From Candidatus Latescibacterota bacterium (GTDB lineage: Bacteria > Latescibacterota > UBA2968 > UBA8231), in assembly GCA_965203355.1 (NCBI GenBank), contig CBDBCT010000002.1, positions 1-61,676 of the forward strand: DNA of 61,676 bases. The letters run 5' to 3'. The position numbers were made by a program, and so were the translations under genes. The notes under the pieces are model-generated. The model was not told the origin of the DNA. It worked only from the letters and a program-made list of their open reading frames with translations, and did not search any database. This document shows, in pieces, positions 18,893 through 60,366 of this stretch. Each line of letters starts with the position of its first letter. The first letter of the stretch is position 1.

Positions 18893-21757
18893 TTAGTTCG
18901 CATTCTCAGCGAACAGATCGGCCTGCCCGGCGTCGGTCGCGCGTCTTTCCCGTGCCAAGCGCATGATCTCCGGCCAGCTTTGCACCAATCCGTTGTAGGA
19001 CAGCGCTTCGGCGGCTCGTTTCTTGCGCTCGCACAAGGTGTAGAGCCGATAGCACAGTTCGCGCGCGACATCTGCGTCTGAGCCGAGCTTTTCCACGAGT
19101 TCAGCGGCGGCATTTTCGCCGTTTGCTTCCAGCACTTGAATGAGGTGATGCACCATTTCCCAAGCGGTCAGCCGCACGTCCGTGGTCGGGTCCCAATCCA
19201 GCGGCAGCTCATCCGGCCTGAGCAGGCGCACCTTGCCGGCTTTTGCGGCGAGGATGCCGGCGGCGACCAGCCCGGCGACACTCGTGTTCTTGGCTTTTGA
19301 CAGGGTCTCGGCGCGGCCGAACTCGCCCGCGTCAAATCCGTGTTGCTCAAACCAAGCCAGCGCCCAGCGGCTGTCCGCGTCAAAGTCGCCTTCCTGCTCG
19401 GCGAGCACTTCGTCGAGCATCTGATTGATGAGCGCGAGGGCTTGGCGCACCGTCATCGGCTGGCCGGATGCGTCTAGCACTCGGGCGTAGCGCGTGTATA
19501 TGGCCATGCCCGGGCCGATGGCGGCTTGCGCGAGATCGACCGGGGCGACGTTGCCCGATTGCATCTGAGCGACTGCGGGCGCAAGCGCGTCTCGCAGCGC
19601 GGCCACAAATTCGCGGCGGGTGGCGGCGGGCGCGTCGGCCGGACGGCGACGGCAGACGAGGACGATGCTGGAGGCGAGGGCACTGGTGCCCATGCCCACC
19701 ATGCGATTGCTGAGTTCGGTCCGCATCGGCCATGTTCCGGTGACTGCGAACCCGGAACGGATCACGGCGTCGAGGAACGTTTCCCAGCCGGTGCTCGCTT
19801 CGCCGCCCTCGCCTTTTTTCTCCGACTGTTTGAAGGCGTAGTAAATGGTGACCGGAAAGCCGGGATGCGCTTGGGTCGCCAAGCGTTGCATCGCCTGCGT
19901 CATGCCATCGAGAAAGAATCGCTCAGCCTTGTCCTTGCTGCCATGACGGTGAGGCGTGGCGACCAGTTCTTCTGCTTTGGGCACGGCAAGCGTAGCGAAT
20001 AAATCGGGAAAAATGGAACGCAGGGAACGGCGGAGCCAGACGTAGAAGAAGTCCGAGAGGTCGGCGTAGCCGATGTTGTCGTAGTACGGGGGGTCGGTGG
20101 AAATCACTCGCGAGAACGACTTCAGCCCACTCGTTGCATCCGCTTGTCGGCCAGTCCCCTTGCTTTCAAGTGATAGCGAAGTAGCGAGAGGATCAGCTAC
20201 ACAGGTCATTGCAGCATCAACGCTACCAGTTGCCGTGCCAAGAAGATTCGGATCGGCGTAATCCCACACCATCGGCAGAGCTTGACGTCCAAAGCAGTGC
20301 TGAGCCTTTTGGCCGACCGGGTTCCATCGAACAAGGCTGTTCGCGGTCATTGCCAATCGATCCACCGCAAACGCCAAATACACCCCCACCGCCTCCGCAT
20401 ACGCCTTCGCTCCGTCAGCGGTCAAACCAGCGGCAGCCGCGTCCCTTCGGATGCGTTCCATTGCTTCCCCGACCAAGTCGGAAAAGGTCGTCAGCGCGAC
20501 GAGTTGGCGGTCAGTGAAGAGATCGCCGAGATTGTCCAGTCCATAGACGGGACCTTGGAAATTGCGGTGCTTCTTGGGCATCTCGCAATCCGGCTTCCAC
20601 GTCGGATTCGCCTCGCCAGCGATGGCCTCATGTTCTGCCGAGGGCGAGAAATACACCCGTCCCCGATCTCCCTCGGCAACGACCGCCATCAGCCGCTGAC
20701 CCAAACGCCCGGCTTTGCCCTCTGTTCGCACGTGATCATACGGCAGAGGAACTCCTGACATCAAGCAGCGAAACGCACGTCGCTTGCCGGCTGATGTTCC
20801 CACCTTCGCCGCTTCGAGATCAAGCGGCGTACCCGCCCGCACCTCAAACCGATACCCGCGTCCTTCAATCACCGGCGCGACATACGCCTCCTTGCCCTTC
20901 TTCGTGGAAAGCATGAACGTGGAAGCCAGCGGCACATCCACATCCGCAAAAGCCGGGTTCGGACTCTTCACCGTCCGCGCCCACAACCACGCAATCACCG
21001 TCAGCTTGCGCCCGGCGTACCGCTGCAAATCAGGCCGCGCCCGCACCATTTCCGCCGTAACTTCCACTTGCGGATACAAATGCCCAATCCGCTTCTCGGC
21101 CTCGCCCCGCATCCACGCACCGTAGCGCCGCACATCCTCGGCCAGCCCCTGCGCCCCTTTCCACTCGCGGCCAAACAATTCCTCGTCGGCCCGAACCGTT
21201 GGATTCACCGGCGGCTTCTCGGCGAATTTCGGCGGAATCTCGATCATCGCCTTGTTGATGAGCACCGCCACCGGATTCAGATCGCTGGCATGAGCCGCCA
21301 AACCCAACCGCTGCGCCTCCAGCGGCAACGCCCCACCGCCCGCAAACGGATCGTGAAAAGCCGGCAACTGCTCCGGATCAAACAACTCGGCGGCACGCGG
21401 ATGATCCGCATGATCCGCGCACGTCCGCCGCCAGCTCCGGCGAATCTCAGCCCGCGCCTCGCCGAGCACCTTTTCGTTGCCGGTGTTTTCCCAAAGCACC
21501 AGTTCCCGCAAGATACCAAACAACCGCTCGCGCTCAGCCGCCTGCGCCGCCAGCGTCGGAAACTCCTCGGGCACCTCCGCCGGATCATCCACCATCTGCG
21601 CGAAAATCACCGCCCGAGCCGTAGCCAGCGGTCGCCGCGCCCACCACAAATGCAGCGTCGAAGGATGCCCGTGGCGAATGGATTTTTCCCGCGCCGCCGC
21701 CGCGTTAATCGCATCAAGCGGCAGCGCAACTTCAATTAACTTTTTCTTCATTTTCAT
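18893..21757 (-). CDS. DUF1156-family adenine DNA methylase
   Basis: KKLIEVALPL...SIRHGHPSTLHLWWARRPL, DPFAGGG, STDPPYYDN. Confidence 0.92.
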   Translation of the reverse strand: MKMKKKLIEVALPLDAINAAAAREKSIRHGHPSTLHLWWARRPLATARAVIFAQMVDDPAEVPEEFPTLAAQAAERERLFGILRELVLWENTGNEKVLGEARAEIRRSWRRTCADHADHPRAAELFDPEQLPAFHDPFAGGGALPLEAQRLGLAAHASDLNPVAVLINKAMIEIPPKFAEKPPVNPTVRADEELFGREWKGAQGLAEDVRRYGAWMRGEAEKRIGHLYPQVEVTAEMVRARPDLQRYAGRKLTVIAWLWARTVKSPNPAFADVDVPLASTFMLSTKKGKEAYVAPVIEGRGYRFEVRAGTPLDLEAAKVGTSAGKRRAFRCLMSGVPLPYDHVRTEGKAGRLGQRLMAVVAEGDRGRVYFSPSAEHEAIAGEANPTWKPDCEMPKKHRNFQGPVYGLDNLGDLFTDRQLVALTTFSDLVGEAMERIRRDAAAAGLTADGAKAYAEAVGVYLAFAVDRLAMTANSLVRWNPVGQKAQHCFGRQALPMVWDYADPNLLGTATGSVDAAMTCVADPLATSLSLESKGTGRQADATSGLKSFSRVISTDPPYYDNIGYADLSDFFYVWLRRSLRSIFPDLFATLAVPKAEELVATPHRHGSKDKAERFFLDGMTQAMQRLATQAHPGFPVTIYYAFKQSEKKGEGGEASTGWETFLDAVIRSGFAVTGTWPMRTELSNRMVGMGTSALASSIVLVCRRRPADAPAATRREFVAALRDALAPAVAQMQSGNVAPVDLAQAAIGPGMAIYTRYARVLDASGQPMTVRQALALINQMLDEVLAEQEGDFDADSRWALAWFEQHGFDAGEFGRAETLSKAKNTSVAGLVAAGILAAKAGKVRLLRPDELPLDWDPTTDVRLTAWEMVHHLIQVLEANGENAAAELVEKLGSDADVARELCYRLYTLCERKKRAAEALSYNGLVQSWPEIMRLARERRATDAGQADLFAENAN

Positions 21758-21833
21758 GGTTTCGGAATAGAGAGACGAGGCGGGGGCTGAACCGCATTGA
21801 CAACCGACCAACGTAGAGCGGACGAGAACGCGC

Positions 21834-44105: not shown

Positions 44106-46548
44106 GTTTTCCGGGGTTTCTTCGCCCCGGCCTCATTGAAGCCCGGACACGCGGCCAACCGCGCCGGGTGGATCGGCCCACCGTTTTCCGGGGTTTCTTC
44201 GCCCCGGCCTCATTGAAGCACGAGGTCCTCACGCAGATAGGAGACTGATCATGGCCGTTTTCCGGGGTTTCTTCGCCCCGGCCTCATTGAAGCTGGCGTG
44301 TCCCAGCGGCCTATCCGTGTGTGCCCGTGGTTTTCCGGGGTTTCTTCGCCCCGGCCTCATTGAAGCATCATGACCCAATTGGATCTACAATTTGCCGGGG
44401 GTTTTCCGGGGTTTCTTCGCCCCGGCCTCATTGAAGCGGCCTTTGAGCCGTTAGGCTCAATCAGAGTGTTGAAGTTTTCCGGGGTTTCTTCGCCCCGGCC
44501 TCATTGAAGCGACCGGTAGTTGAGTTTGATGCGAACCAATCACGCAAGTTTTCCGGGGTTTCTTCGCCCCGGCCTCATTGAAGCATTTGTTAGATTATGT
44601 TGTGCGCTTGGGAATTGGCCGTTTTCCGGGGTTTCTTCGCCCCGGCCTCATTGAAGCCGGCGTCAAGCCCGGGGTGCGCCAGGAGGCCACTAACCTGGTT
44701 TTCCGGGGTTTCTTCGCCCCGGCCTCATTGAAGCCTGATAGACAAGGTTCCAAACGGCATGTCGGTCATGGTTTTCCGGGGTTTCTTCGCCCCGGCCTCA
44801 TTGAAGCAAACTGTACGAGTTGCCGACAGAAACTTTGCCGGCTGCCGTTTTCCGGGGTTTCTTCGCCCCGGCCTCATTGAAGCGGAGTAGCCAAGCTCCG
44901 AGAGGACGCTTTCGACCAGCCGTTTTCCGGGGTTTCTTCGCCCCGGCCTCATTGAAGCGGTTGCCTTCGCTTCGGTTCCCTTCGCTTCGTCCAGCTACGT
45001 TTTCCGGGGTTTCTTCGCCCCGGCCTCATTGAAGCCAGTACCGGCTGGCCGTCTCGTACTGCTCGGTTATCGTTTTCCGGGGTTTCTTCGCCCCGGCCTC
45101 ATTGAAGCTAAGTGGTTCAATTCATAAAGCGTACGGAATTGTAACAGTTTTCCGGGGTTTCTTCGCCCCGGCCTCATTGAAGCATTTGTAATGTCGATTC
45201 TCTGACCCCTGGCCCACTGCGTTTTCCGGGGTTTCTTCGCCCCGGCCTCATTGAAGCGACCTTCGCGTCCTTCAAGAGCCCTTGCAGGCGGGTGATGTTT
45301 TCCGGGGTTTCTTCGCCCCGGCCTCATTGAAGCGTTTGTCGTTTTGCTAAAGTTTGACATGGATTTCTCCTGTTTTCCGGGGTTTCTTCGCCCCGGCCTC
45401 ATTGAAGCCTGGTCTGGGCGGAAATAGCGCAACTCGAATTGCTTGTTTTCCGGGGTTTCTTCGCCCCGGCCTCATTGAAGCATCGTCGGAGGGCTACCGT
45501 ATCCGCGAGCAGTTCGCCCGTTTTCCGGGGTTTCTTCGCCCCGGCCTCATTGAAGCGGTTGCTTACGTACCAAAGCAAAGCCGAAAATGACCACGTTTTC
45601 CGGGGTTTCTTCGCCCCGGCCTCATTGAAGCACTGGCCTGTGGATTTGTCGCTATATCGGCCCCGCTGTTTTCCGGGGTTTCTTCGCCCCGGCCTCATTG
45701 AAGCACCCGGTAGGGATGGCTCGCTATCTGACGACCGCGCAGTTTTCCGGGGTTTCTTCGCCCCGGCCTCATTGAAGCTACTCACGCCACAATCGCGCCA
45801 CAAACGCGGCAAACCGCCGTTTTCCGGGGTTTCTTCGCCCCGGCCTCATTGAAGCCCTGAGTAGGTCGGCGATGCGCCGGTAGCATTTGGCGGTTTTCCG
45901 GGGTTTCTTCGCCCCGGCCTCATTGAAGCCCCTTGCCTTGCCTTGCCGCTTGCCGCCTTGCCGCCTGTTTTCCGGGGTTTCTTCGCCCCGGCCTCATTGA
46001 AGCTTTGAGTTAGTCGCTTACGATCTCTAGTTCGGCGGCGGTTTTCCGGGGTTTCTTCGCCCCGGCCTCATTGAAGCGGTCACGGGCAACGCCTGCGCGC
46101 CGTTGCGGCGTAGCGGTTTTCCGGGGTTTCTTCGCCCCGGCCTCATTGAAGCTTGTTGAAGGCGGACGTCACCGCCGAGGGCAGTGAAGTTTTCCGGGGT
46201 TTCTTCGCCCCGGCCTCATTGAAGCGACAAGCAGCCGTTGACCCGTGCCGCCCCGTGGGGTCATTTCCGGGGGTTTTTCGCCCCGGCCTCATTGGAGGAA
46301 GCACTGAAGTAAGTCTATAGACCCCAATGTTCAGTATCGTGTTTCTGGCACTTCCGGGGGGTTGCCTCGGCCTCATTTCAGCTCCGAGGGGGTGTGACAA
46401 AGGGTGTATAATTTTGTTAGTAGTGTGCTATTTCCGGTTTTTCTTGCCTCGTCTTCATAGGGGAATCGAGTGGCGCGATAAAAGGCGAAGTGCTCCGTTA
46501 GTTAGCACAGCGCTATTTCCGCCTTTTTTGCCTCGGCCTCATTGCAGC
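44106..46548 (+). CRISPR. Type I-G array: 29 perfect 37-nt repeats plus 4 degenerate trailer repeats
   Basis: GTTTTCCGGGGTTTCTTCGCCCCGGCCTCATTGAAGC from 44106 to 46225, spacers 34-40 nt; degenerate units at 46262, 46349, 46429, 46514. Confidence 0.98.
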
Positions 46549-46638
46549 AACGTCGCCGTCAAAATCAGGCATTGTTAATACGGCTCGAAGAGTTCGGACG
46601 CTACAGGGATGGAAAGGGTCGGAGCGTTCGGCCGGGCC

Positions 46639-49600
46639 TTAAACCTCGTCGAGGTCTGGTCGCTCGCCGCGGGTCAGTTGGTCGTAGGCGCGGAGGACGT
46701 AGCGTTGGGTGCGGTACTCGCCGAACTCCTGGGTCTCGTTGCGTTTGAGGGCCGGGAAGGATGCGCTCGGCGCGGGCGCGTCTAAAATCCATTCGAGATC
46801 GGCGCGGTCTAGCTGGTATAGGTGCGCGAAAAGGGCGTCGAGTTCGCACTTGAGGCGGTGGCGGCGGTCGTCGTCGTAGGAAAAGGGCGGCCCGTCGTAG
46901 CCCAAGTCGCGGGCAAACCCTTCGAGGTCGGCGGCGGTGTAGGTCAGTTCCAAGACGCGGGGGACGATGAGTTCGACGTATCGGAGGCCGGGGAGCACCT
47001 CTTCGAGATAGGCTTCGGGCGGCAGGACGGGAAGTTGTTTGACGATGAAAAAGGCCATATTGACACCCCCTATCGACGAGCGGGTAGCCCAGTCGAGGGG
47101 AAGGCTGTTCATGTTCGCCAAGACCAACGCAGAAGCGATTGCTCGCGCCTGATCGTAATCCACAACCGCAGAGCTATGACCCACGGCACCCCGGAGAATA
47201 TTCCCGGAGACAATAGTCCGCTCATTCGTGGCGTTGGTGATGTTGCGGAAAACCTGAAGCCACTTTGAGTAGTCGATATGCAAGAGAGGTGCTTTATGGT
47301 TCATAGCTGAGATTCCCGTTGCTACCGTAAAGATGGCTGTCCGCTGGTTGGTTGGGCCGGAAATGTCGCGGAAGACAAGCCGCCAACGCTGATGGTCGTT
47401 CCCGAATCGCCCAGACCAAAATACGGCATCACGGCGAAGATTCCCGTCCGCTCGTTGGTCGCGTTGGTAATTTTCCTGAGAGCGAGCTGCGAGCCAATTC
47501 GGTAAGCATAGAGAGCGTGCGTGCGTGCGTGCGTGACGCAATCAGTGGGATCACTTCGGTTTTATTAAGTCTTTTTTCGACTTCTTCCGCCGGCACCCAA
47601 TAGCGGGGGAGCGGCACGGCCTGCGCGTCGGCTTTTTCCGCGGCCGTCATGGGCCGGGCGTTGCCGCCTTTGAGGTCTTTGGCCGCAACGCCTTCAAACG
47701 TGGCAAAGCGATGATCGTACTGGTGGAACAGCTTCGCTTCGTACAGGGGGAGAAAGCATTCCGGCTCGGCGTCCCCACGCACGAACACATTGCCCACAAG
47801 CTGCCAGCCCGCTTCTTCCAACTGCTCGCGGGTGCGAAAGAGGCCAGAGTCATTGGACATGTGGAACATACTGGAAAACTTCACGCCCCACGGGTTCACC
47901 TCCGGCTCGGCCCCTTTCGCCTCCTTCCAGAGCACCCCGGCGCGGCCGTACATCTTGCGGGCAATTTCCATGTCGCGCCGCGTGCGAAAGATGGGGCACG
48001 TGCGGGTGTTGGGATTGAACAGGGCAAAATCCTCAGCCGACAGGGTGAACCGCCGCGCTGAATCGCGCAGTTGCTCGGCTTGGTACAGGAAGAAGGCGAA
48101 CTCGGCCGGGGAAACAGGGCACTCGGCGCCGGTCAGCGTGAGCAGGCAGAATTTGATGCGGCTGTCTATGCTTGGGAAAACCTTTTCCCGATTTTCAAAA
48201 TCGTAGAGACTAACGAGCCGCTGGCTGGCGACCATTTTGTCGAAAAACGCTTTGGTCGAATTGTCGGTGGCAATGCCGGTCGGCACAATCAGGCCGGCGC
48301 GCCCGCGCGGCCCAATCAACGCAAAGAACAGCTCGGCAAACACCGCATACGTGTTGACATCGCCGACGCCCGCCAGCGGGAATCTACCTCCCGTGCGGAC
48401 AAACTGACTGGTGGCCTCGGCTTGCCGTTGTGCCACTTGGAACTCGGCAAAAAGGGCCTTTTCGTCCGGCCGGGCGTCCTCGCGGACCAACTGCTTGATG
48501 AGGCGGGCGCGGGCGGCTTTGTTGGGTGCTTGCGCGATGTCAGGCGACCGCGCCGCGAAAAATTCCTGCTCCTGCAACTTGATGCGTTCCCACGGCGGAT
48601 TCCCCAACACCACGTCAAACCCCCCATCCTGCATAATCTCGGCAAAGGCCAGATGCCAATGAAAAAAGCCGTGCTGCTCGGCGAGTTCGCACGCCGCCTC
48701 GCCGACGCCGGGCCGCATGACCAAACCGGCCTGGAGGCGATTGAAGTCCTCAGCAAACGGCACGGCGTCTGCGCTGCTCGGCGTCTTGGGCGCAAAATAC
48801 GCCCCGACAAACAGATCGGCCCGCAGTTTCTCTTGGCGGCGATCGATGGCCGCATATGCCGTGCGCTTGCGATCTACATCCTCAATCGTTTCCTCGGGCA
48901 TATCGTCGAGGTCTAGAGTCGCCACCGCCACTTCCAACAAGCTGTCTGAGTCAAACAAATCGCCCTGCACCGCATCGCCCACTTGGCGATTGCGCTTCCT
49001 AAGCTCGGCACAGACTTCCTTGTCATCGCCTTTCAAGGGCTTGTACGCGGCCGGCGGAATGCCGTTGGCCATGCTCTGCGGGTCGAGTACGCCGACGAGG
49101 CTGTCGCCGTGCCGAATGTGCGCGTGGAGAAAGGTCAGCGGCTTGCCCGGCTGCACCGCCTCGATCCACAAAGCGGTCTGGCACAACTCAACCGCCAGCC
49201 GATTGCGGTCCACGCCATAGATGCAATGCTGCACCACGGACCGCAGGGCTTGCTGATGAGCGGCCTCGCCGCTTGCCGCTTCGCAGCGGACTATTTCGGC
49301 CGCCATGCGCCGGGCGGCCGCCAAGAGGAAATGACCCGAGCCGCAGGCCGGATCGATGACCCGCAAGGCGAGAATTGCTTTGCGCGGATTTTCAGGATGC
49401 TCGGCGACCGCTGCGGCCAGCACCGGCTCCAACGTCGATTTGATCAGCTCGTTGACGAGGGACGCGGGCGTGTAGTACGAACCGGTGAGCTTGCGCTCGG
49501 AGCCTTTGCCCTTTTCGCGGCTGAGGCCATCGCCAACAAAGCCAAAAGTCCAAGGCGTCGCGTTCACATCTACCACCGGCTGAAGCTCCAACAGGCTTTC

Positions 49601-50845
49601 GTACACCGAGCCCAGCTCTTCCACGCCCATGTCGCGGTAATTGACGCGGGCGAGGGCTTCGTCGGTGCGGAAGAAAGCCAGCTTTCGCACCGCCTCTAAA
49701 AGGAACCTGTTGGCCAAGGTCGCCTCCGCCAAATCCGGGCACTGATCCGCCCGAAACAAGCCCCCTAAAGCCGGCAAGCCCAGGGCCGGCACCCCTTGGT
49801 CGAGCGCACCAAAGGTAATCCGCAGGCCCTCGTACAGATCGTGGTGGTGGTCAAAATGGCGGCGGCGCGAGGCGCGTTCGCGCAATCGTGCGACAGAATA
49901 CCCCTCGGCAAACAGGGTGCGTTGTTGGGCGGTGGCTCCGGGTACATGCAGCAGCTCGCGCTCTTCGGCTGTAAAGAGAAACAACAAGCGGTAGATAAAT
50001 CGCAGTAGCTGCTGAAAATAGGCCTCGGGCGAGAGCTGCCCGGCGGACAGGGCCTGGCGCAGGGCTGCGTTGTCCGGGTGTTGTAGGAAGCCATTGCCGA
50101 GCTGCCGCAGGGCTTGGGTGACGCCGTCGCGGAGGTTGTCTAAGGCGCGTTCGCCGGTCTGATGGGCTTGGCTGCGCCAGCTTTCGATGATACAACTGGC
50201 CGGCTGGCCATTGGTTGGCTGCAAACGGCTGGCGTGGACGGTGAGCCAAAGCGCCGCAAAATCCGCGTAGAGTCCCTCCGCGAACATCCGGTCCAAATCG
50301 GCCTCAATGCAGGCGCGCCGGGTCAGGCTGGAGTTGTCGCGGAGGAGGCGCAGTTTTGAGCCGTTGGCAACGATCCCCCACAAAGAAGCATCCTCGGCAT
50401 TGAGGTACTCTTGCATCAATTCGTGCGGTGTTTGCCGACGTCCCTCGTCGCCAAAACGCCGCTCGGCCTGGTCGAGTTCAAAGTCGCGCGTGGTCAAAAG
50501 CAGGGGCACCCGCTCACTACAAGCGCGATGAGTTAGCGCAAAACGCCGCTCGCCCAGCACGACGCGCTCAGCCGCGGTCATATCGTCATAGCCGAGGATG
50601 TCGCACAACAAAGGTCTCAGCCATTCGTCCACGCTGGTCTGACGGCCTTTGGCGTACAGATCGTTGGCGATGCGCCAGTAGCGGGCCATTTCCTCCTTGA
50701 GCGCGAGGGACTGAGAGAGGCCGTAGTCAGCGCCGGTCTGGCTGGGGGCCTTTAGGGCGGCGATGGTCTGTAGGAACTCAGGCGGCAAAATGCCGCCTTC
50801 GGCCCTAAGAGCCGTGAATCCATGCTCTTTTCGTGTGCGTGCCAT
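46639..50845 (-). CDS. Eco57I/type IIG-like adenine methyltransferase, currently frameshifted at an (ACGC)5 tract
   Basis: LGSVYESLLE, GSYYTP, IDPACGSGHF, GNPPW, LPLYEAK; C-terminal part (NSLPLDW, VKQLPVL, LELTYT, GEYRT) lies in ORF 46639-47541. Confidence 0.88.
47515..47534 (-). repeat. Tetranucleotide repeat (ACGC)5
   Basis: gcgt five times on the + strand, exactly at the frame break. Confidence 0.9.
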
Positions 50846-50951
50846 TTTTGCTTTTTATCGCCCGTTTTCCGCTCAATTATAGGGATTGTTGTGCTTCTGG
50901 TTGGTGGTGCCGTGCGCACGGGCGACGATGTGATCTATGTGGAAGTCGACC

Positions 50952-51776
50952 TCACGCTAAGTCTCCTTCGGTTAGGTTAAGTGTTGGATCTGGCCATAGC
51001 CATTGGCCACACTGGAACAGCCGATCTACCGTATGATCTCCATTCCAGAAATGCTCGGCGTCCACCTCGAATACCCAGCGTTTCTCGTGGCCTACTTCGT
51101 CAATAAAATCGCGCTTCTTCCGATTGGTGCTGTTGACCTCGATGACAAAGTGGTCCGTGTTTTTGGGTTCAGGCATACGATCCAAGCAGGATTTGGAGAT
51201 CGGGTTTTTGCGGCTTTCCTTGACGAGCCTGTCAACAACCGCCCCCGTTAGGTTTTCAATGATCCCAAATTGACTGTTAGGGGTTGGAAGGTCATCGGTG
51301 TCAGGAGGAAGCCCAATCCCGATCAGTTTTTCTTCTCGGCTAACCTGAGCTTCATAAAAAGGCTCTGTCGCCCTAAAGTGTGTGTCAAACATGTGCCACA
51401 GAATGAACTGTTCTAGCGTGTGAGGGTCGTTGAACGCTTTTTCATAATTGAACACGTCCAACATGTCATCGCGCCGGTCAATAGGGGCCATGTCTTGGAA
51501 GCAACTTTTTATCCTGTCTACGAGATCGGGCAAGATGATAATGTCCGCCTTGATGTCATACCTTCTCTTGTTATCCGGGTTGTGATTCTCACGGCTAACC
51601 CCTGTAAACGTGACATGTTCGGGAATGACCAAGTCTGAGTGCCGAGGAAAGGTATAAGACCACCCCAACACAAAGTTGTGGTCTTCCTCCCACCGCTTTT
51701 TGGCCAAGTCTATTCTCCGATTAAACTCATCGAAAATCCACTCTTGTACTTGGTTGTGGAGTTTGCTAGGACTCAT
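50952..51776 (-). CDS. Hypothetical protein, possible PD-(D/E)XK-like nuclease
   Basis: 274 aa with GGAGA RBS, lower GC; ADIII...VIEV motifs are only suggestive. Confidence 0.55.
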   Translation of the reverse strand: MSPSKLHNQVQEWIFDEFNRRIDLAKKRWEEDHNFVLGWSYTFPRHSDLVIPEHVTFTGVSRENHNPDNKRRYDIKADIIILPDLVDRIKSCFQDMAPIDRRDDMLDVFNYEKAFNDPHTLEQFILWHMFDTHFRATEPFYEAQVSREEKLIGIGLPPDTDDLPTPNSQFGIIENLTGAVVDRLVKESRKNPISKSCLDRMPEPKNTDHFVIEVNSTNRKKRDFIDEVGHEKRWVFEVDAEHFWNGDHTVDRLFQCGQWLWPDPTLNLTEGDLA

Positions 51777-52129: not shown

Positions 52130-54976
52130 TCACAAGCGCGCCATGGGCATAAAAACATAGACCCCGATTGTATCAACCGGCAGTGCCGGGGTCGCGTCGT
52201 ACCGCAGGCCCTTAGCATCGCTGGCGTCGCGGATGCGCCGGTGATCGGCCAACAACGTCCGGGCGCGCTCGTGGGCGAGGCGAGTAAAGGTATCTGCTAG
52301 GGTAGGGCTGGGGAGGGCTTCCCGAATTAGGCGGGTTTTCTGGCCGTCTGCCATGTTGCGACCCGGCTCTAAGGATAGGAGCGACAGGGCCTCTTCCTGG
52401 GGCAATAGTTCAGGGTCGTTACCCCCGCGTACCGCCACGCCAAGACACTCCTCGGTCAGCAGGGACTTCAGCAGCGCGTACTGGCCGTCGGCCCCGCGCT
52501 GCTCCACTTGAAGCTGACTGCGCAGACGCAACAGGTAGAGCACGGTGCGGGTGTGAATACCTCGTGCGAACATGGCACTGGCCCGGGCCCCGAGGTCGGG
52601 TTGCCCCGCGTCGAGGGCCTGTTCGGCCACGTAATCGGCCAGTGTTGCAACCAGCGGATGGGCCCGGTGGATGTAGGTTGCCCCGGTTGGCGCGGGTTGG
52701 GCAAAGGCGAGTCTAGCGGTCGCGCCGAAGCCGAGGGCCTCAAGGCGGTCTTGCAGCGGTTTGGGTAGGTGGGCAACGGCTAAGCGACTGTACCCGTTCC
52801 GTTGGTCCAGCGGTGCCTCCAAGCGGTCGGCAGCCAAGCGGACAAAACGCGCCACGTCCTCCGGCCCGCCGAGTACAGAAACCGCCTTCCGCCATTCCGG
52901 TAGCACATCGTCGGGCCTTAGTCGCCGCTGGGCAAACACCGTGCGGGTGATCTGCCCTTGGGCCGTTTCCCACGCTTGGTCCACTTCAGCCTCGGTCTCG
53001 CCAAAATCGAGGCGTGCCTGCGCGGTGCGGAAACTACCGACGCCTTGCAGGAGAACGGCTTGCATGATGGCATCGACGACCTTGTCGTTGTCGGCAGGCA
53101 AAGGCACCGCCACGCCCAGCTCGGTGCGAATTTTCTCGGCCTTGCGCAGGATCACGCGGAGCATGGCCCCGTCAACCGGATTGTCCTCGCCGTAGAGCAT
53201 CAAGGTGCGCACCGTCGGTGCTGCCTGCCCAAAGCGGTCGGCCCGGCCCTCGCGCTGCTCGTGGCGGGTCGGATTCCAAGCGAGATCGTAGTGTACTACT
53301 GCATTGAAGTGCCGTTGTAGGTTGATGCCTTCGGAGAGGCAGTCGGTGGCCACGAGGACCGGCACGATGTCTTCGCCTAAAGTGCCGAGCTCCTCCACTT
53401 GCTGTTCGCGCTGGTACGAGGTCAACTCGCCAGAAATGGCCGCGATGCGGGTTTTCTCCGCCGGTAGAGCGCGTTTTAGGTACTCGCCGAGGTAGTGGGC
53501 CGTGGCGATGTAGCGGCAGAACACCACCGGCTTGAAGCCCGCGGCGATGAGCTTTTGCACTTCAGCGATAAGGGTCTTCAGCTTGGGGTCTTGCTGGGGA
53601 CCGCGGAGCGCGTCCGCTCGCCTAATGAGCCGACGCAGCGCCTCGGCATCCTCGGGTGCTTCGAGGGTGCCAGCCGGTACGCTCTCGTCGAGCGTCAGCG
53701 CATCGTCGGCCCCGGCATCGAGGACCGTTTCGCTTGCCGCTTGGTCCAATTCGGTCTCGCTCTCGGCCGCTTGAAGTCGCGTCCGCAGTGCCAGCACGGC
53801 GGCGGCCGGGCTAGAAGAAACGCATCGTAGCAGGGCCAAGGCCGCCCACCAAGACATGCGCTGCTGTAGCTTAGTGCCGTCCTTGGCCTGCTCAACCATG
53901 GTCCGCGCATAGGAAAGCACATCGTCGAAGATCTGCCCCCAGTCGCCGGTCAACCGGTACGTAGCTTCCCGGCGCGCGCGGACGGGAAAGCCGGTCGTAT
54001 CTTTCCACTCGGCAATATCGCCGCGCCGCCGTTGGACAAAATGGTTGGCTAGTTCATCGCGCAGCAATCTACGCTCCTCGCCTTCGGGCATCTCGGCCAA
54101 CTGCGCGAACCTCGGGTCCAACAGGCCCAAGAGGTTGTGAAAAGCGGCCTCGTCGCCCGAGTGCGGAGTGGCGGTGAGGAATACCATACTGCGTTTAGGC
54201 TCGCGCTCGGCGAGGCCCTTGAGCAGCCGATAGCGCTGATGGCGGGCGGCGGTATTGGACTGAACGCAGGTGTGGGCCTCGTCCACTAGGACCAATTCCG
54301 GGCAAGCGCGCAGGAAGTCACTCCGCCGCTGATCGGATTTGATGTAGTCAAGGGAGACAACCGTATGAGGATAGACCTCAAAAATGGACTCGTCCGGTCG
54401 CAGGCCGCGTTCAAGGCGGGCCGCTGTACCCGTGCGGACGACCTCCGCCTCGATACTGAACTTTTCGGCCAGCTCTTGCTGCCACTGCTCGCATAGATGC
54501 GGCGGACAGAGCACCGCAAGCTGTTTGATCTCGCCGCGATCGATAAGCTCTCGTGCTATCAGACCGGCCTCAATGGTCTTGCCAATACCAACATCGTCGG
54601 CGATCAGGAGGCGGATGGTGTCCAGCTTGAGTGCCATAAGCAATGGCACGAGTTGATAGGCGCGCGGTTCGACATTGATGTTGCCGAAACTGCGAAAGGG
54701 ACCCGCCCCGGCCCGCAGTTTCAGGCGCAGGGCATCCCGCAAGAGCAGCGCGGCTTCTTGCGCGCCCGGCTTGTTGGGATCGGGCGGGGGAAAAGTCGCT
54801 TGGGTCGGCGGTTTAGGCTCTATGGGCAAATAGATGAGCGTAGCATCGTCTTCGGCTCCGCCGAGCGGTCGGAGTTTCAGCCAGTCGGCGTCCCGTTCGG
54901 GCAGCACGACCCATTCGCGCCCCCGCACTCTAACCAAATCTCCCGGATTGGGTTTGAACTCAACGACTGACTCCAT
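52130..54976 (-). CDS. SNF2-like helicase (DrmD-like)
   Basis: ADDVGIGKT, VDEAH, TATPH, EGINLQ, WNPTRHEQREGR. Confidence 0.9.
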   Translation of the reverse strand: MESVVEFKPNPGDLVRVRGREWVVLPERDADWLKLRPLGGAEDDATLIYLPIEPKPPTQATFPPPDPNKPGAQEAALLLRDALRLKLRAGAGPFRSFGNINVEPRAYQLVPLLMALKLDTIRLLIADDVGIGKTIEAGLIARELIDRGEIKQLAVLCPPHLCEQWQQELAEKFSIEAEVVRTGTAARLERGLRPDESIFEVYPHTVVSLDYIKSDQRRSDFLRACPELVLVDEAHTCVQSNTAARHQRYRLLKGLAEREPKRSMVFLTATPHSGDEAAFHNLLGLLDPRFAQLAEMPEGEERRLLRDELANHFVQRRRGDIAEWKDTTGFPVRARREATYRLTGDWGQIFDDVLSYARTMVEQAKDGTKLQQRMSWWAALALLRCVSSSPAAAVLALRTRLQAAESETELDQAASETVLDAGADDALTLDESVPAGTLEAPEDAEALRRLIRRADALRGPQQDPKLKTLIAEVQKLIAAGFKPVVFCRYIATAHYLGEYLKRALPAEKTRIAAISGELTSYQREQQVEELGTLGEDIVPVLVATDCLSEGINLQRHFNAVVHYDLAWNPTRHEQREGRADRFGQAAPTVRTLMLYGEDNPVDGAMLRVILRKAEKIRTELGVAVPLPADNDKVVDAIMQAVLLQGVGSFRTAQARLDFGETEAEVDQAWETAQGQITRTVFAQRRLRPDDVLPEWRKAVSVLGGPEDVARFVRLAADRLEAPLDQRNGYSRLAVAHLPKPLQDRLEALGFGATARLAFAQPAPTGATYIHRAHPLVATLADYVAEQALDAGQPDLGARASAMFARGIHTRTVLYLLRLRSQLQVEQRGADGQYALLKSLLTEECLGVAVRGGNDPELLPQEEALSLLSLEPGRNMADGQKTRLIREALPSPTLADTFTRLAHERARTLLADHRRIRDASDAKGLRYDATPALPVDTIGVYVFMPMARL

Positions 54977-55068: not shown

Positions 55069-58000
55069 CTACGCTCGGCCCTTGCCCGGTCCGAAAACCC
55101 AAGCGTATTCCTCTACAATGTGGCCCCACAATGCTCGGTTTGCCGGGAACCGCACGACCGTGAATCCCGCGTCCTCAAGACGCTGGGTTATCTCAGCATC
55201 GCGGCTTGTGTAGTACTCTTTGCTACCCTCGCTGACGGTTTGTCCTTCAACGTGCTGTTTCGTCTGGCCCTGCCCACCGTGGTGAGGGCCGTCGATATAG
55301 ATCAGCGTTTGCTGGTCGGCGTAGGCAAAATCGGGACGGGTACTGAACGCTTCTAAGTAGGGCTGCGCCCGATTAGGCAAGCGGTATCCATTCGTTTTAA
55401 GGTAGTTGAGCCACGCCTGCTCTAGGCTCGAAGTCGATGCGTTCATCAGGCTATTAAAGCTATCGTTAGCCTCTGATACAGAGGCGGATGTCTCGCGCTC
55501 GCTCCGGGTCAGGCGACAGAGGAGGTTGAGCATGGCTTCGTTGCGCCGGTCCATGTTGGCGTGGTCTGGCTGGTTGTAATAGCTCAGTAAGCAGCGGTAG
55601 CAACCCGCCTCACAGTCCGGGGCCTGATCCGCCAGATCGCTGAAATCGGTCCAAGCACCGGATTTTGAGGTGAAATGGCAAATGTCTAGGGCTTGGCGGG
55701 CGACCCGGGCTAGCGCGGTGGGATCATTGGTAAGACGGGTGAGGACGCCGGCACCGCCTTCGGCGGCCTCGTAAAAAAGGATGGCCGTGCGGTTGTGTTG
55801 GTCGGGCAGTGGCTCGGCCGCCAGCTCGATCTCTTCTAATTGAAATTCCTGTTCAATGCCGCGTTTGAGCGCGTACTGCAACGAGGTAATCGCTTCGATT
55901 GGCAGATTGGCCAGTGGTTGAACCACGAGGACGTTGCGAGTGTCTTCGACAAAGGGCGTGATGCGCTCAATGGTTTTGCCGTCTTGCACCCCATCGTCTT
56001 CTACATCCGTAGGGTCTTGTGCGTCTTTGGTCCACTCGCCGGTATGAGCATCGACACTGAAACCGTAAATGGACTTCTGCTCGCGCCGCCGCCAGCCCAA
56101 ATTAATGCGCCAAATCGTCGCGGCCGGGCCGTATTTGAGTTGCAAGAGCGGCTCGCCTTGCTCCTGCACCTCGATGCCCGCAAAGCACGGCTTGCCGTTT
56201 TCTTCGGCAAAGCGCAGTGCCGTAATCATCTCGTATCCTTGCCGTTGTCTTTCTTCCTCGTCCGAGGTGATGCGCGTGGCGCGTCGCGTGGCGACCTGTT
56301 CGATGCGATAGAGATTGACGACGCTACGCCCGCCGGTGAGGAGCGCATCGCAGTTGGCACAGCGTTCAGAGTCCTTCTGCTTGCCAAAATGCCCGTAGCC
56401 GCAGGCTGGGCAGATGCGTACCGCTTGTACCGGCAACTGGGTCGAGGGGATGGCGGAAGCCTCGTCGCGCACGGTGAGAATAATGCGCCGCACGCGATAG
56501 GTGCTGCCTTCGTGGTAGATAATGGATTGCGGACCAAACTCGGAAAGCCCCAAAAACCGGGGCCGGCTCAAAAACGAGTCCCGCACTACTTTCTCGTTGC
56601 GTCCCGGGATAAAGGCCATAAGCGGCAAGCGCGGAAAGTTGTACCCCGGCAAAAAGCCCTCGGCCGCAAGGTAGCGATAGGTATGAAAATCTGAGTTAGC
56701 CGTCCGCCGGCTGGCGAGGAGTAGATTCTGCTGGGTGTAGGCTTCGTCGTAGCGCGTCTTAGCCTCGCGGCGGTCCTGTTCGGTCGCGGCGGCGTTGTTG
56801 ATGATGTCACTGGCGGATTTTAGCTGACTGGCGGTAGCCCGATAAAGAGAGCGCCAGCGGCCAAAGGCTTCGTCAAAACAGCGTCTTACCGAATTCATCG
56901 CACTGCCCAACCACGTTTCCGTGTACCAAGGGGCGGCTCCCTTAGCCAGGTCGTCAGCGAGCATGGCGAGCAGGCGCTGCGCCCGCTGTTGGGCTTGGCT
57001 CAACGCTCTGGCACTGCCGATGGATTCGGCGAGATGTTCGTGCAAAGGGAGTGCGGTCGGTTCTTCTCGGTTGATAACATCGCACACGGAAGTGCCTAGC
57101 ATAACGCCGGTCTCGGCCAGCCAGACCGCGTGTAGATGGCTGCGGATGAGGTCTTCATTCGCTAGATCAACAGTCGGCGGATTGACCGCACCCGAGACCA
57201 TGCGCGTTGGTTCGGAAAAAAAGTACTGGTCGTGCGGCGACAAAGCCGCGCAGTACGTGATAACCAAGGCCGGTTGGCCGCTGCGCCCAGCACGTCCACT
57301 GCGCTGCACGTAATTGGCTGGCGTGGGCGGCACGTTCCGCATATAGACCGCGTTGAGTGCCGCAATATCCACCCCGAGTTCCATGGTCGGCGAGCAGAAT
57401 AGAATCGGCAAGCCGGCCGGCTCCTCTTTACCTTCGACGATGCGTTCGGGCTCAAGCCCCCGGCGGAAGCGGGCCTCCCGTTCGGCGCGAACCTCGGAAT
57501 CCACTTGGGCGGTATGCTCGCGGGCTTCGAGCTGGTGCAGGAAACAGTCATCGCCTTCTAACAGCCGGGCGACATTCCTGTACAGATCGCAGAAGAACGG
57601 ATTGGCCGACTTGCTCGGCGCCGCAGATAGATGCCATTCAAGTGCCGAGCTATCAATCCGATAGCCGAAGCGGCCGCCGTCCAACTCGGTGGGCTCCACA
57701 TAGCCATAGACAGTCAGAACGCGCAAAATGTCGTCGATGACACGGTTGTAAACATGCTCATCGAACTTGACCGGATAATGAGGATTGTCGTGGCCCCACA
57801 CGGCCTGAGACTTGAGCCACCGCCCGAAGGCGGAGCGATGAGACATGTGCAATAGATAGTCCTGCTGGCGGGCTTTGGACCTTGGGCGCGGAACCATGAA
57901 GGTGTGCGAGGAAAGTTTTTCGTCTTCGGACAGCCCCCAGGGTTCTTTCAGATCGTTGAAGCTCCGGTTGCGGAGCTGCTCTTGGAAACTCAGGTCGAGA

Positions 58001-60366
58001 TAGATGGTCTTGATGCAGAGTGATTTGCGCATCTGGTCGAGGAGCTTAGCGACGATGTCAGATCGACGCGACGGCTCTATTGCCCCGAGCAGCGGATGAC
58101 CCTGCCGCCATTCTTGCTCATCTTCGCAACAAGTCTCCAAGTCCCGGTATCCAATATCTAGCAGCCCGAGCTGATCCAAGTTGGGATTGTTGATGCGCCA
58201 ACCCCGCTTTAAGTCGAAATAGAGGCGATAACCCAGCACGTCGCGCAGGGTTTTAAGGGTGTTCTGCGCCCGGATGCCCTTGGTGCCGGGATTGGCGGCG
58301 TAGTCAACGGGCTCCAAGTGCAGGTGCTCGAACACCCGTTGGGTCAGGATGTCGTCGGTAAGTTCCCCATCCTTTTGTATGGCAGCTAGCAGCGCACCCC
58401 GCAGCAAAAGCGTTTGAATGAAATCGTTGAAGTGCCCCGCTTGGAGGCTGGCGTCTTGTCGATTGTCGGTAAAGGCAAGCAACTTTTTGGTGTTCGCATC
58501 GAGGCTGGTGCCGATCAGATGCCTTAGAGCGGACAGAGCCAGCATGGTTGTGGCCGAACTGCGACCTTCGCTGGACAGGCTGGCGAGCTTGCTTAGGTCG
58601 CTGCGCTTGCTGCCGTCGTAGTACGCATCGCAGTCCGCGTTGAGACAGAAGCGAAACAAGCCAGGTATGAACCATGCCGGTAGCCCGTGGGCGGCGATCT
58701 CGCCGAGCGTATCCACGCAAACGGGAATGGGACAATAGCGTTTGTAGTAGGGCTTGAGACGTGGCTCCCCCTGGTGAAATTCCAGCCAATCTTCGGGGTA
58801 ATGGCCTTCTATATCCGTCGAGTCAAAGGTCCCCTCGCTGTCCGGCATGAGATAGCCGTAGCAGGTCGCCTCTTCCGCCTCTTCTTTGTTTAATCGTTCG
58901 GAAAGTTGGCGGGGGCTGAAAGCCGTGGGCGACTTAGCCTCTATTGTCGCCCAGACCGGGAAGTACTCCTGACCACACTGGCGGCAAAAAGAAAGGTTGA
59001 ACAAGAGGCGACTGCGGTCCCCCGGTTTGAATTGCTGGCCCGCTAAGGTGATAAAACGCTGCCTAGGTACTTCTAGGGTGGCATACGCATTTGCGGGACT
59101 ACTGATGAACTGATGGAGTCGGAAGGAGAAAAAATTGCGGCCGCTATCGCTCTGGCTTTGATAGGCCGCAGTTAGGAACTTCACGAGGTATTCTCGGCAA
59201 AGCGGCTCCGGCAAGCCGCTATCTTGGGCGAGTAATTTTCCCGCTTCAACAACCGTTTGCGGGCGGGCGATGCGGACGATCTGGCCGTCCTGATCTTCTA
59301 AACCGAGCTTGCGCTCTACCCAAGCTGCCACCGGATGGCTTGACAATTCAGCGTGCGTTGCGCTGTCGGCCACCCCCATCTCAATGGCTTGTCGCAGACA
59401 GGCGGAATCAGTAGAGATGTCGTTGTTGGTAACTGGCTCAAGCGTTTCGGTGATGATGTGGTCCGCGCTGACCCGAGCACCAAATAGCCGACTGGCGATG
59501 TTGGCAACAATCTCATTCCGCTGCTGGGCCGACCCCGCTGAGGCTATGGTGGCAGAGGTGCCGATACAGAGGAGATGTTCGTTGAACCGTTCCCGCACCC
59601 GCCGGATCAACAAAGCCACATCAGCACCCTGTCGCCCCCGGTAGGTGTGCAACTCGTCCAAAACCAGAAACCGCAGCCCGGCGGCGTGTTGCCGCACCGC
59701 TTTATCGGTCTCGACGAATCGCGTCATGAGCAGTTCGAGCATGACGTAGTTCGTCAGGAGAATATCCGGGGGATTTTTCGCAATGTGCGCGCGCTCTTCG
59801 TTGGTTTCTTGGCCGGTATAGCGGGCAAAAGTCACCGGTTGGTTGCCCGCGTCGTAGCCGCGGCGCAGAAACTTTTCCAGCTCCTCAAACTGGCTGTTGC
59901 ACAGCGCATTCATCGGATAGACAACAATGGCAGAGATGCCTTTGCAAGGATCGCCAGACTTCTTCCGCCGCAATACGTCATTGACAATGGGGATGAAGTA
60001 ACTGAGCGATTTGCCGGAGCCTGTACCCGTCGTCAAGACATAGCTCTCGCCCCGGCTAGCGATAGCGATGGCTTCGGCTTGGTGTTTGTGCAACACCAGC
60101 GGTTGGGCCGGAAGAGCGGTTGGGGGCTTGATGCGAAAGATGTGGGCGCATTCCGCATCGAGCGTGCCGTTTGCCACAAACGCTTCAATAGACCCACCCG
60201 GCACGAAATTGGGGTTCAACTGGATGAGGGGAGCAGGCCAGAAACGGCCACTGTCATACGCCTCATCAACAACCGCGCGAATGTCGGCTGCCCGGATACG
60301 GATGAAGCTACGTGAGAAGCGTTCGTACTCTGAAACGAGTTCCTCGCGGAATGCGAAGACGTCCAT
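55069..60366 (-). CDS. Large DEAD/DEAH helicase with DUF1998-like region and C-terminal Vsr/DUF559-like nuclease
   Basis: TGTGSGKS, YPMNAL, LDELH, MELGVDI, QRSGRAGR; CEAGCYRCLLSYYNQ; RPDF..IYIDGPHH..RD..GFTVVRF. Confidence 0.9.
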   Translation of the reverse strand: MDVFAFREELVSEYERFSRSFIRIRAADIRAVVDEAYDSGRFWPAPLIQLNPNFVPGGSIEAFVANGTLDAECAHIFRIKPPTALPAQPLVLHKHQAEAIAIASRGESYVLTTGTGSGKSLSYFIPIVNDVLRRKKSGDPCKGISAIVVYPMNALCNSQFEELEKFLRRGYDAGNQPVTFARYTGQETNEERAHIAKNPPDILLTNYVMLELLMTRFVETDKAVRQHAAGLRFLVLDELHTYRGRQGADVALLIRRVRERFNEHLLCIGTSATIASAGSAQQRNEIVANIASRLFGARVSADHIITETLEPVTNNDISTDSACLRQAIEMGVADSATHAELSSHPVAAWVERKLGLEDQDGQIVRIARPQTVVEAGKLLAQDSGLPEPLCREYLVKFLTAAYQSQSDSGRNFFSFRLHQFISSPANAYATLEVPRQRFITLAGQQFKPGDRSRLLFNLSFCRQCGQEYFPVWATIEAKSPTAFSPRQLSERLNKEEAEEATCYGYLMPDSEGTFDSTDIEGHYPEDWLEFHQGEPRLKPYYKRYCPIPVCVDTLGEIAAHGLPAWFIPGLFRFCLNADCDAYYDGSKRSDLSKLASLSSEGRSSATTMLALSALRHLIGTSLDANTKKLLAFTDNRQDASLQAGHFNDFIQTLLLRGALLAAIQKDGELTDDILTQRVFEHLHLEPVDYAANPGTKGIRAQNTLKTLRDVLGYRLYFDLKRGWRINNPNLDQLGLLDIGYRDLETCCEDEQEWRQGHPLLGAIEPSRRSDIVAKLLDQMRKSLCIKTIYLDLSFQEQLRNRSFNDLKEPWGLSEDEKLSSHTFMVPRPRSKARQQDYLLHMSHRSAFGRWLKSQAVWGHDNPHYPVKFDEHVYNRVIDDILRVLTVYGYVEPTELDGGRFGYRIDSSALEWHLSAAPSKSANPFFCDLYRNVARLLEGDDCFLHQLEAREHTAQVDSEVRAEREARFRRGLEPERIVEGKEEPAGLPILFCSPTMELGVDIAALNAVYMRNVPPTPANYVQRSGRAGRSGQPALVITYCAALSPHDQYFFSEPTRMVSGAVNPPTVDLANEDLIRSHLHAVWLAETGVMLGTSVCDVINREEPTALPLHEHLAESIGSARALSQAQQRAQRLLAMLADDLAKGAAPWYTETWLGSAMNSVRRCFDEAFGRWRSLYRATASQLKSASDIINNAAATEQDRREAKTRYDEAYTQQNLLLASRRTANSDFHTYRYLAAEGFLPGYNFPRLPLMAFIPGRNEKVVRDSFLSRPRFLGLSEFGPQSIIYHEGSTYRVRRIILTVRDEASAIPSTQLPVQAVRICPACGYGHFGKQKDSERCANCDALLTGGRSVVNLYRIEQVATRRATRITSDEEERQRQGYEMITALRFAEENGKPCFAGIEVQEQGEPLLQLKYGPAATIWRINLGWRRREQKSIYGFSVDAHTGEWTKDAQDPTDVEDDGVQDGKTIERITPFVEDTRNVLVVQPLANLPIEAITSLQYALKRGIEQEFQLEEIELAAEPLPDQHNRTAILFYEAAEGGAGVLTRLTNDPTALARVARQALDICHFTSKSGAWTDFSDLADQAPDCEAGCYRCLLSYYNQPDHANMDRRNEAMLNLLCRLTRSERETSASVSEANDSFNSLMNASTSSLEQAWLNYLKTNGYRLPNRAQPYLEAFSTRPDFAYADQQTLIYIDGPHHGGQGQTKQHVEGQTVSEGSKEYYTSRDAEITQRLEDAGFTVVRFPANRALWGHIVEEYAWVFGPGKGRA

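Follow-up and report, generated by a model that had tools for sequence, protein, structure and literature searches.

Introduction

Phase-variable DNA methyltransferases are known mainly from host-adapted pathogens, in which they belong to type I, type III and type IIG systems. We analysed a stretch of 61,676 nt from a Candidatus Latescibacterota bacterium (assembly GCA_965203355.1, contig CBDBCT010000002.1; hereafter the window), which carries a gene for a DrmMI-like N6-adenine DNA methyltransferase with a tetranucleotide tract, (ACGC)5, late in its coding sequence. Behind the tract lie three copies of a conserved module, one (A) in one reading frame and two (B and C) in another, followed by a conserved C-terminal domain. 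We consider the locus to be, probably, a phase-variable contingency site in the methyltransferase of a class-1-DISARM-like operon, with the tract selecting between alternative C-termini. Repeat-driven frame switching as such is strongly supported.

Repeat-switched methyltransferases, C-terminal phase variation and programmed inversions of DrmMI genes are already known. In Campylobacter jejuni NCTC11168, a G9 run at nt 2573 of 3732 splits the type IIG gene cj0031/cj0032 into two open reading frames (ORFs), and slipped-strand mispairing is the established mechanism for such repeats (PMC4889913). Like Cj0031, the enzyme studied here is a large single-chain adenine methyltransferase of the Eco57I/MmeI type, with a tract of the hypermutable kind deep in its gene and conserved domains on both sides. 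The tract of Cj0031 is a homopolymer, whereas repeats of four to 11 nt are found here, and no alternative-frame copies of a module are described in the sections of that report drawn on here (PMC4889913). Cj0031, moreover, works as a type IIG enzyme on its own, in a host-adapted pathogen, and its phase variation may be restricted to a subset of alleles (PMC4889913), whereas the gene of the window stands in a helicase-containing DISARM-like operon and every member of its clade carries a tract. Phasevarions, in which tetra- or pentanucleotide repeats switch type III mod or type I hsd genes, resemble the locus in that a non-triplet repeat within the gene switches an adenine methyltransferase (PMC5909438, PMC7383803). 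As far as these accounts go, phasevarion repeats usually lie near the 5' end and act as on/off switches, whereas here the repeat lies at codon 1104 of about 1400 and is followed by alternative conserved C-termini. The hosts of window-type loci are environmental bacteria of many phyla, unlike the hosts of phasevarions.

Two further systems alter the end of a protein. In Helicobacter canadensis, late repeats change the C-terminus and do not abolish the protein, as here, but those repeats are homopolymers in unrelated genes, and the alternative frame is not presented, in the parts of the report on which we rely, as a copy of a conserved motif (PMC2823697). In class 1 DISARM, programmed inversions diversify the 3' part of DrmMI genes, which belong to the same family and the same type of operon; the inversion-type loci include fusions of a YprA helicase and DUF1998 in one coding sequence (PMC9881135). 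As that survey describes them, the inversions proceed by recombination between inverted repeats and yield alternative alleles, whereas the window has a simple sequence repeat and neither inverted repeats nor a recombinase near the gene. Class 1 DISARM of Serratia sp. SCBI likewise places a DrmMI-type adenine methylase beside SNF2 and DrmA/DrmB-type helicases, and the preprint, in the portions considered here, reports no repeat in that gene (10.1101/2021.12.28.474362). In a literature search that excluded subscription journals and bioRxiv supplements, we found neither simple-sequence-repeat switching of DISARM or DrmMI nor motif copies staggered behind a repeat.

The repeat tract and its reading frames

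The elements of the gene are listed below. Frames are named X (module-less), Y (ending after module A) and Z (full length, with modules B and C); module scores were obtained with a hidden Markov model (HMM).

47429..50845, minus strand: DrmMI-like N6-adenine DNA methyltransferase (Pfam, PADLOC), N-terminal ORF as sequenced, 1138 amino acids (aa), state X
47515..47534, minus strand: (ACGC)5 tetranucleotide tract, beginning in codon 1104; probable frame selector
47391..47501, minus strand: module A (RIGSQLALRKITNATNERTGIFAVMPYF...), frame Y, HMM score 54.1 bits
47322..47324, minus strand: stop codon TAG of frame Y, end of the predicted module-A isoform, 63 codons past the tract
47284..47394, minus strand: module B (WRLVFRDISGPTNQRTAIFTVATGI...), frame Z, HMM score 47.2 bits
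47161..47271, minus strand: module C (WLQVFRNITNATNERTIVSGNILRG...), frame Z, HMM score 56.0 bits
46639..47160, minus strand: conserved C-terminal domain (NSLPLDW ... GEYRTQRYVLRAYD), frame Z, stop codon at 46641-46639

The ORF that starts at 50845 reads through the tract and ends at a stop codon (47431-47429) inside the DNA of module A. Tandem Repeats Finder returned a single row for 46600-51000, with period 4, 5.2 copies and 100% matches at 47515-47535. (ACGC)5 is the only tetranucleotide run in the window, and no run of five or more units arose in 200 mononucleotide shuffles of it. ORF lengths were computed by a script that varied the number of ACGC units from n=2 to n=8. With four or seven units the protein has 1400 or 1404 aa and contains modules B and C and the C-terminal domain; with three or six units it has 1171 or 1175 aa and contains module A only; with two, five or eight units it has 1134, 1138 or 1142 aa and contains no module. 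An earlier note on this DNA had proposed that the ORF breaks frame at (ACGC)5, that n=4 fuses it to the full C-terminus and that n=6 leads into module A and then to a stop; the break and the frame arithmetic are both confirmed. Frame Z is open for 291 codons after the tract, though out of frame with the N-terminus. The DNA of module A forms a stop-free linker in frame Z and holds a stop in frame X, which is created by the conserved (A/V)-M-(I/M) codons of the module.

The only other short tandem repeat in the window at the thresholds used is (CGGATG)3 at 15479-15496, which lies in frame in a gene for a 1171-aa S8 peptidase/He_PIG protein.

We propose the following mechanism. The linker immediately ahead of the conserved module of about 37 aa contains a non-triplet repeat. 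In single-module relatives this module occurs once, directly in front of a C-terminal domain of about 170 aa, and in the clade described below it would have been multiplied and staggered over reading frames. Slipped-strand mispairing at the tract during replication would change the repeat number. A count of 1 mod 3 (four or seven units) would yield a protein of about 1400 aa that runs through an unconstrained linker into modules B and C and the C-terminal domain; a count of 0 mod 3 (three or six) would yield one of about 1175 aa that ends shortly past module A; and a count of 2 mod 3 (five, as sequenced) would place a stop within the DNA of module A and leave a module-less protein of 1138 aa.

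Frame states among homologues

A protein search with residues 760-1138 gave thousands of matches, and the best 120 (58-100% identity) were examined. Their lengths form two or three peaks, at about 1150, about 1200 and 1400-1450 aa. The anchor YDHRF...RYWV was found in 116 of these 120, and in at least 63 of the 116 a perfect periodic peptide follows directly after RYWVPEEEV.KRLDK. Its period is 5 aa in 47 homologues, 7 in nine, 8 in two and 2 in two, and 4, 11 and 14 aa in one each. We take these peptides to be translated DNA repeats of 4, 5, 7, 8 or 11 nt; the AEPSR peptide corresponds to (GCCGA)n, as was confirmed in the DNA of loci L002 and L003. A motif-based classification assigned the 116 anchored homologues to the three states as 51 X-like, 34 Y and 31 Z, counts in which X is favoured by a query that held an X-state tail.

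Close relatives fall into different states. The pair P0010 (X) and P0011 (Z), with 91% identity over 1123 aa, splits right after ...LLTD, exactly at the tract. Two further pairs, compared over 305 aa, are P0002 (Y) with P0003 (Z), at 92.8% identity, and P0024 (Y) with P0036 (X), at 91%; P0010, P0025 and P0011 represent all three states at 92-96% identity. Pairs that are 91-96% identical thus differ both in tract and in frame state, and the repeat length is variable among relatives, as the earlier note had expected of a switch.

Related loci and their phylogeny

The scan of genome contigs gave 75 related loci, and thus 76 sources with the window, of which 68 matched the anchor and 64 extended far enough downstream. 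In 52 of the 64 there is one module only, in frame and 0-456 nt past the anchor, followed by the conserved tail of about 170 aa; none of these 52 outgroup loci has a non-triplet tract. In each of the remaining 12 sources (the window, L001-L006, L008, L010, L011, L013 and L031), two or three modules are spread over at least two frames. All 12 have a tract at the homologous site, which is perfect in 11 and an imperfect duplication of 29 nt in L031. The clade tracts comprise (ACGC)5, (GCCGA)38, (GCCGA)13, (TCGGG)28, (GAGCC)9, (ACCG)14, a 10-mer in nine copies, an 8-mer in 18 copies, G9, C11 and C10. L002 and L003 have similar flanks and carry (GCCGA)38 and (GCCGA)13, respectively. By state, five of the 12 sources are X, three end in a module and four are full length.

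A tree was built from the 350 aa that precede the tract and has 63 tips, L012 and L048 having been left out for stops; in it, the 12 multi-frame sources form one clade with a support of 0.886, the only additional member being L016. Perfect tracts accompany the multi-frame layout in 11 of 12 sources, against 0 of 52 single-module loci, which is not an independent statistic since the 12 are one clade. The multi-frame architecture thus arose once, the tract having since been replaced many times. Hosts of the related loci belong to the Alpha- and Gammaproteobacteria, Acidobacteriota, Gemmatimonadota, Verrucomicrobiota, Rhodothermales and Chloroflexota, and this spread over many phyla implies horizontal transfer. 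The contig of L016 ends within a G run, and that of L066, the sister of the clade, within (AGAC)6, both at the same site. Such ends are typical of assemblies that break at long repeats, and surveys based on short reads would therefore under-count these tracts.

It could be argued that the gene is a decaying pseudogene, in which the repeat would be a chance insertion, and modules A and B leftovers of old duplications. The gene is indeed interrupted as sequenced, many database homologues are truncated, and in L004 about 410 nt have been inserted between modules B and C (about 9640-10090) and break the C-terminal frame. However, the 291-codon downstream frame of the window is free of stops, the corresponding frame is open for 258-318 codons in seven of the eight out-of-frame sources, and gaining or losing one unit brings back a long frame. 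Nor are the neighbouring helicase genes disrupted, and the ratio of nonsynonymous to synonymous differences (pN/pS; next section) is 0.44-0.51 for all three modules. Decay therefore seems very unlikely; because close relatives differ at the tract and the downstream frames stay open, we favour switching. The insertion in L004 carries an open frame on the opposite strand.

Selection on module A

Selection was assessed in ten related sources (the window and nine loci) over an 84-nt core block of module A. In frame Y the pN/pS was 0.50, and differences in the three codon phases were 0.396, 0.167 and 0.485. The same block gave 1.93 in frame Z, with no stops, and 0.76 in frame X, with 11 stops. For comparison, modules B and C had values of 0.51 and 0.44 in frame Z. 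Among homologous proteins, the A block read in frame Y was 55.2% identical in 25 Y-state proteins, with 56.4% in the N-terminal flank. Read in frame Z, the same DNA gave 40.0% in 23 Z-state proteins (flank 60.8%), and in frame X 38.5% in 44 proteins (flank 59.9%). These values indicate that purifying selection acts on module A in frame Y and that the module is not a relic. The stretch is thus dual-coding, a selected module in frame Y and a merely open linker in frame Z.

Two clade members show another architecture. In L006 (9282-10400) and L011 (9264-10400), every one of the three reading frames after the repeat has a single module of its own; two of them end 40-104 codons past the tract, and the third continues into the C-terminal domain. 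The window differs, with A in one frame and B and C in another.

These results bear on the plainest alternative, a binary on/off switch in which the full-length frame alone counts and the truncated products do nothing, module A being kept for another reason, for example to give a harmless, well-terminated product. On/off switching by a repeat within the gene is the pattern described for type III mod genes and for type IIG cj0031 (PMC4889913, as far as that report was consulted). The window-type clade does have one frame, X, without a module, and the low-confidence AlphaFold models (see below) lend no structural support to an active module-A isoform. On the other hand, selection on module A in its own frame is as strong as on B and C, while the full-length frame is unconstrained there, and modules in all three frames of L006 and L011 are hard to explain if truncated products are irrelevant. 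Even a role as a harmless cap would amount to selection on the Y-state product. We therefore regard a purely binary switch as unlikely. Since module A is selected in frame Y and modules occupy all frames in L006 and L011, we read the tract as a selector of C-termini and not only as an on/off switch. The repeat-driven switch with three frame states that the earlier note had put forward is accordingly upheld by the site-conserved non-triplet tracts, the X, Y and Z states and the selected module A.

Several isoforms could also arise from one DNA state, perhaps with A, B and C together, by transcriptional slippage or a programmed ribosomal frameshift at the A/B junction. The A-to-B spacing is 107, 110 or 113 nt, always 2 mod 3, in all ten sources with the window layout (the window and nine loci). 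Module A is also preserved intact in the other frame in all four full-length members (L001, L003, L008 and L031), although three of these carry nothing more than a short homopolymer or an imperfect duplication. Neither a slippery heptamer nor a stimulatory structure was seen, but no search for them was made. The tracts, however, differ greatly in length and unit between close relatives, as slippage of DNA produces, and we know of no transcriptional slippage at tetra- or pentanucleotide repeats. We give this explanation next to no weight beside a DNA-level selector.

The three modules

The modules comprise about 37 aa each and share the motif W..FRDITNATNERT... They include a 34-nt repeat family with three copies at 47216, 47339 and 47446, which are 71-79% alike and spaced by 123 and 107 nt. 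In the window, DNA identity between their cores is 45-54%, and protein identity over 28 residues is 32-36%. The HMM scores (47-56 bits) and the repeat family substantiate the three homologous modules recognized in the earlier note, with limits close to the start points given there. The heptamer AGCGGAC is common to all three, as had been noted, and simply represents codons for (E/Q)-R-T.

Module C aligns with the only module of 21 single-module loci (alignment A4) and is thus the orthologue of the single canonical module. The expectation that the segment normally occurs once is right for the outgroup, all 52 single-module loci having one copy. In distant single-module relatives the motif RDITNATNERT is nearly invariant, a pattern that speaks for a structural or catalytic role and against one in specificity. 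The earlier note had placed the segment in the target-recognition region of type IIG-like enzymes. This could not be confirmed, as Pfam and the PDB gave no match and the Atlas weak leads only.

The same note had seen in the modules divergent specificity cassettes, a reservoir from which slippage together with deletion or recombination between modules would change the recognition sequence. Three homologous modules do lie in tandem, and DrmMI-like genes are known targets of specificity-changing programmed inversions, according to the part of the survey used here (PMC9881135). One homologue, P0114 (884 aa), has a single A/B-like hybrid module that continues in frame into the last part of module C and then the C-terminal domain, the arrangement that a deletion would leave. 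It is the only case of its type among the best 120 homologues; it looks like a deletion between modules, and such events would have occurred at least once in evolution. The relatives, however, normally carry the same modules at fixed spacing, the layout being kept in the window and all 11 other clade loci, an outcome that the earlier note itself had named as refuting its model. The near-invariance of the motif is likewise unlike a specificity determinant. Paralogous modules are 0.47-0.50 alike within a genome and 0.46-0.48 between genomes, compared with 0.55-0.67 for orthologues, and since paralogues are about as alike within as between genomes, we conclude that there is no gene conversion between modules. 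Neither long identical nor inverted repeats were found at the modules; the longest shared DNA is the 34-nt core, and inverted repeats do not exceed 12 nt. No recombinase lies near the methyltransferase gene, the only integrase of the window (7118-8119) being about 39 kb away. A specificity-cassette reservoir is accordingly highly improbable.

Gene conversion between modules A and C was also considered in its own right, as hinted by the ITNATNERT that they share in the window; the equal identity of paralogues within and between genomes led us to reject it.

The C-terminal domain

The C-terminal domain was found by tblastn in 67 of the 76 sources. The C-terminal 214-300 aa had no match in Pfam (E<=10) or NCBIfam. 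In the PDB, a profile of module and C-terminal domain (alignment A4, 29 sequences) had no match at E<=10, and phmmer with P0016 gave 0 matches; the A2 profile yielded only marginal matches to methyltransferase cores (E 0.2-0.5). The Atlas gave weak leads to MmeI_TRD and DUF7008 (score 0.91-0.92, 120-138 shared features), which were not used as evidence.

AlphaFold2 was applied to P0003, which has a full-length tail (alignment A2, 23 sequences), and to P0025, which ends in module A (alignment A3, 24 sequences). The mean predicted local distance difference test score (pLDDT) was 53.4 and 59.4, respectively.

Weighing the proposed switch

Several points weigh against a phase-variable selector of C-termini. 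The selection test rests on ten related loci and an 84-nt block, and the protein query was biased towards X-state matches. The full-length loci L001, L008 and L031 have only a homopolymer or the imperfect 29-nt duplication and may be near-fixed; the fourth full-length locus, L003, has (GCCGA)13. The link between the tract and staggered modules reflects a single evolutionary origin and not many. With only five units, the tract of the window is short, and its mutation rate may be modest compared with the tracts of 13-38 units in relatives. The whole region after the tract has a pLDDT below 50 in both AlphaFold2 models, which thus give no structural support for a working module-A isoform, and the module and the C-terminal domain, being without Pfam or PDB match, have no role assigned by family.

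On the comparative evidence set out above, we nevertheless hold the selector to be the probable explanation. Slippage may proceed at a high rate in living populations, and the module-A isoform may have an activity of its own, for example methylation without the role of the C-terminal domain. Switching could then tune or silence the DISARM-like defence. Loss of the methylases is tolerated in the class 1 DISARM of Serratia, without autoimmunity, according to the preprint as far as it is used here (10.1101/2021.12.28.474362); by analogy, an OFF state should be tolerated here as well.

A more far-reaching proposal, which we offer tentatively and would not expect to hold in full, is that the locus is a three-position selector in frame-multiplexed DNA. 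Copies of an essential module would be staggered over the frames and dual-coding with a linker, so that most or all phases yield a folded, module-bearing protein, one phase with the C-terminal domain and one or two without it. The isoforms might differ in activity, for example in methylation with or without coupling to the helicases and restriction, and a clonal population might cycle through defence-competent, methylation-only and silent members. Such a selector would have spread horizontally through at least seven phyla of environmental bacteria.

The locus would extend the known principle of repeat switching to a DISARM-like operon found in many phyla of environmental bacteria, where tracts can reach dozens of units. 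The coding DNA downstream of the tract has come to carry meaning in more than one frame. Should the truncated form with a module prove active, one gene would compactly encode several forms of an enzyme with stochastic switching between them, and this would provide a handle on the role of the conserved motif and the C-terminal domain in DrmMI-type enzymes. For genome annotation, the 'partial' methylases of about 1150 and about 1200 aa and the separate ORFs of about 300 aa in this family are best read as switch states of one gene, neither distinct genes nor necessarily pseudogenes.

The operon

The methyltransferase gene is the last of an operon on the minus strand, after genes for a DrmA/DrmB-like fusion and a DrmD-like SNF2 helicase and an orphan ORF.

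55069..60366, minus strand: fused DEAD/Helicase_C/MZB(DUF1998) protein, 1765 aa (Pfam, PADLOC), a fused DrmA-DrmB-like (DruE-like) component
52130..54976, minus strand: SNF2-type helicase, DrmD/DpdE-like, 948 aa (PADLOC, NCBIfam)
50952..51776, minus strand: orphan ORF, 274 aa, between the SNF2 helicase and the methyltransferase

Pfam matches of the methyltransferase (Eco57I, 3.2e-18; N6_Mtase; MmeI_Mtase) are confined to residues 450-760. PADLOC DrmMI matches it at 4.4e-74, with the best stretch at residues 447-753, and the PADLOC type IIG models cover only the methyltransferase and what follows it. No fused nuclease domain was found, Pfam being empty for residues 1-440. For the SNF2 helicase, PADLOC scored DpdE (1.4e-204) better than DrmD (4.1e-88), and its NCBIfam DISARM_DrmD score of 334 bits lies under the family cut-off of 610. 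The best PADLOC models of the 1765-aa fusion are DruE; DrmA matched weakly (3.4e-14), and NCBIfam DrmA was far under its cut-off. Both helicase genes are kept upstream of the methyltransferase in most of the 75 fetched related loci, the SNF2 helicase in 67 and the fusion in 62; these counts leave aside the window itself, whose slice in the database searched ends at 52000, ahead of either gene.

No PLD domain (DrmC) was detected in the five operon ORFs scanned with Pfam, PADLOC and NCBIfam, a scan that ended short of the small ORFs beyond 60366. The system thus differs from that of Serratia sp. SCBI in its fused DrmA/DrmB, in a DrmD under the NCBIfam cut-off and in that no PLD gene was seen; DrmC is given as dispensable in the Serratia preprint, in the portion cited here (10.1101/2021.12.28.474362). 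Because of the sub-threshold DrmD and the PLD gene not seen, we call the system class-1-DISARM-like and not DISARM outright.

The 274-aa ORF had no family match in Pfam, NCBIfam or PADLOC and is absent from all 75 related loci, its sole match being the window itself. The 2-kb bin around it has a lower G+C content (0.552).

Surroundings of the operon

The window looks like a defence island. Further defence or mobile genes are the following.

761-2389, plus strand: N6_N4 methylase fused to HNH
6179-6856, plus strand: RadC
7118-8119, plus strand: phage-type integrase
18893-21811, minus strand: DUF1156 protein, 972 aa, with a weak D12 methylase match

A CRISPR array with 29 identical 37-nt repeats (44106-46225, plus strand) ends about 400 nt from the 3' end of the methyltransferase gene, and degenerate copies of its repeat run to about 46550, within about 100 nt of the methyltransferase stop codon. 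Upstream of the array lie the cas genes GSU0053, GSU0054, cas3 with a C-terminal HD domain, a cas4-cas1 fusion and cas2, and the CRISPR-Cas locus looks like type I-U/I-G. The spacer at 45930-45966 is of low complexity and consists of short repeats resembling CCTTG/CCGCTTG.

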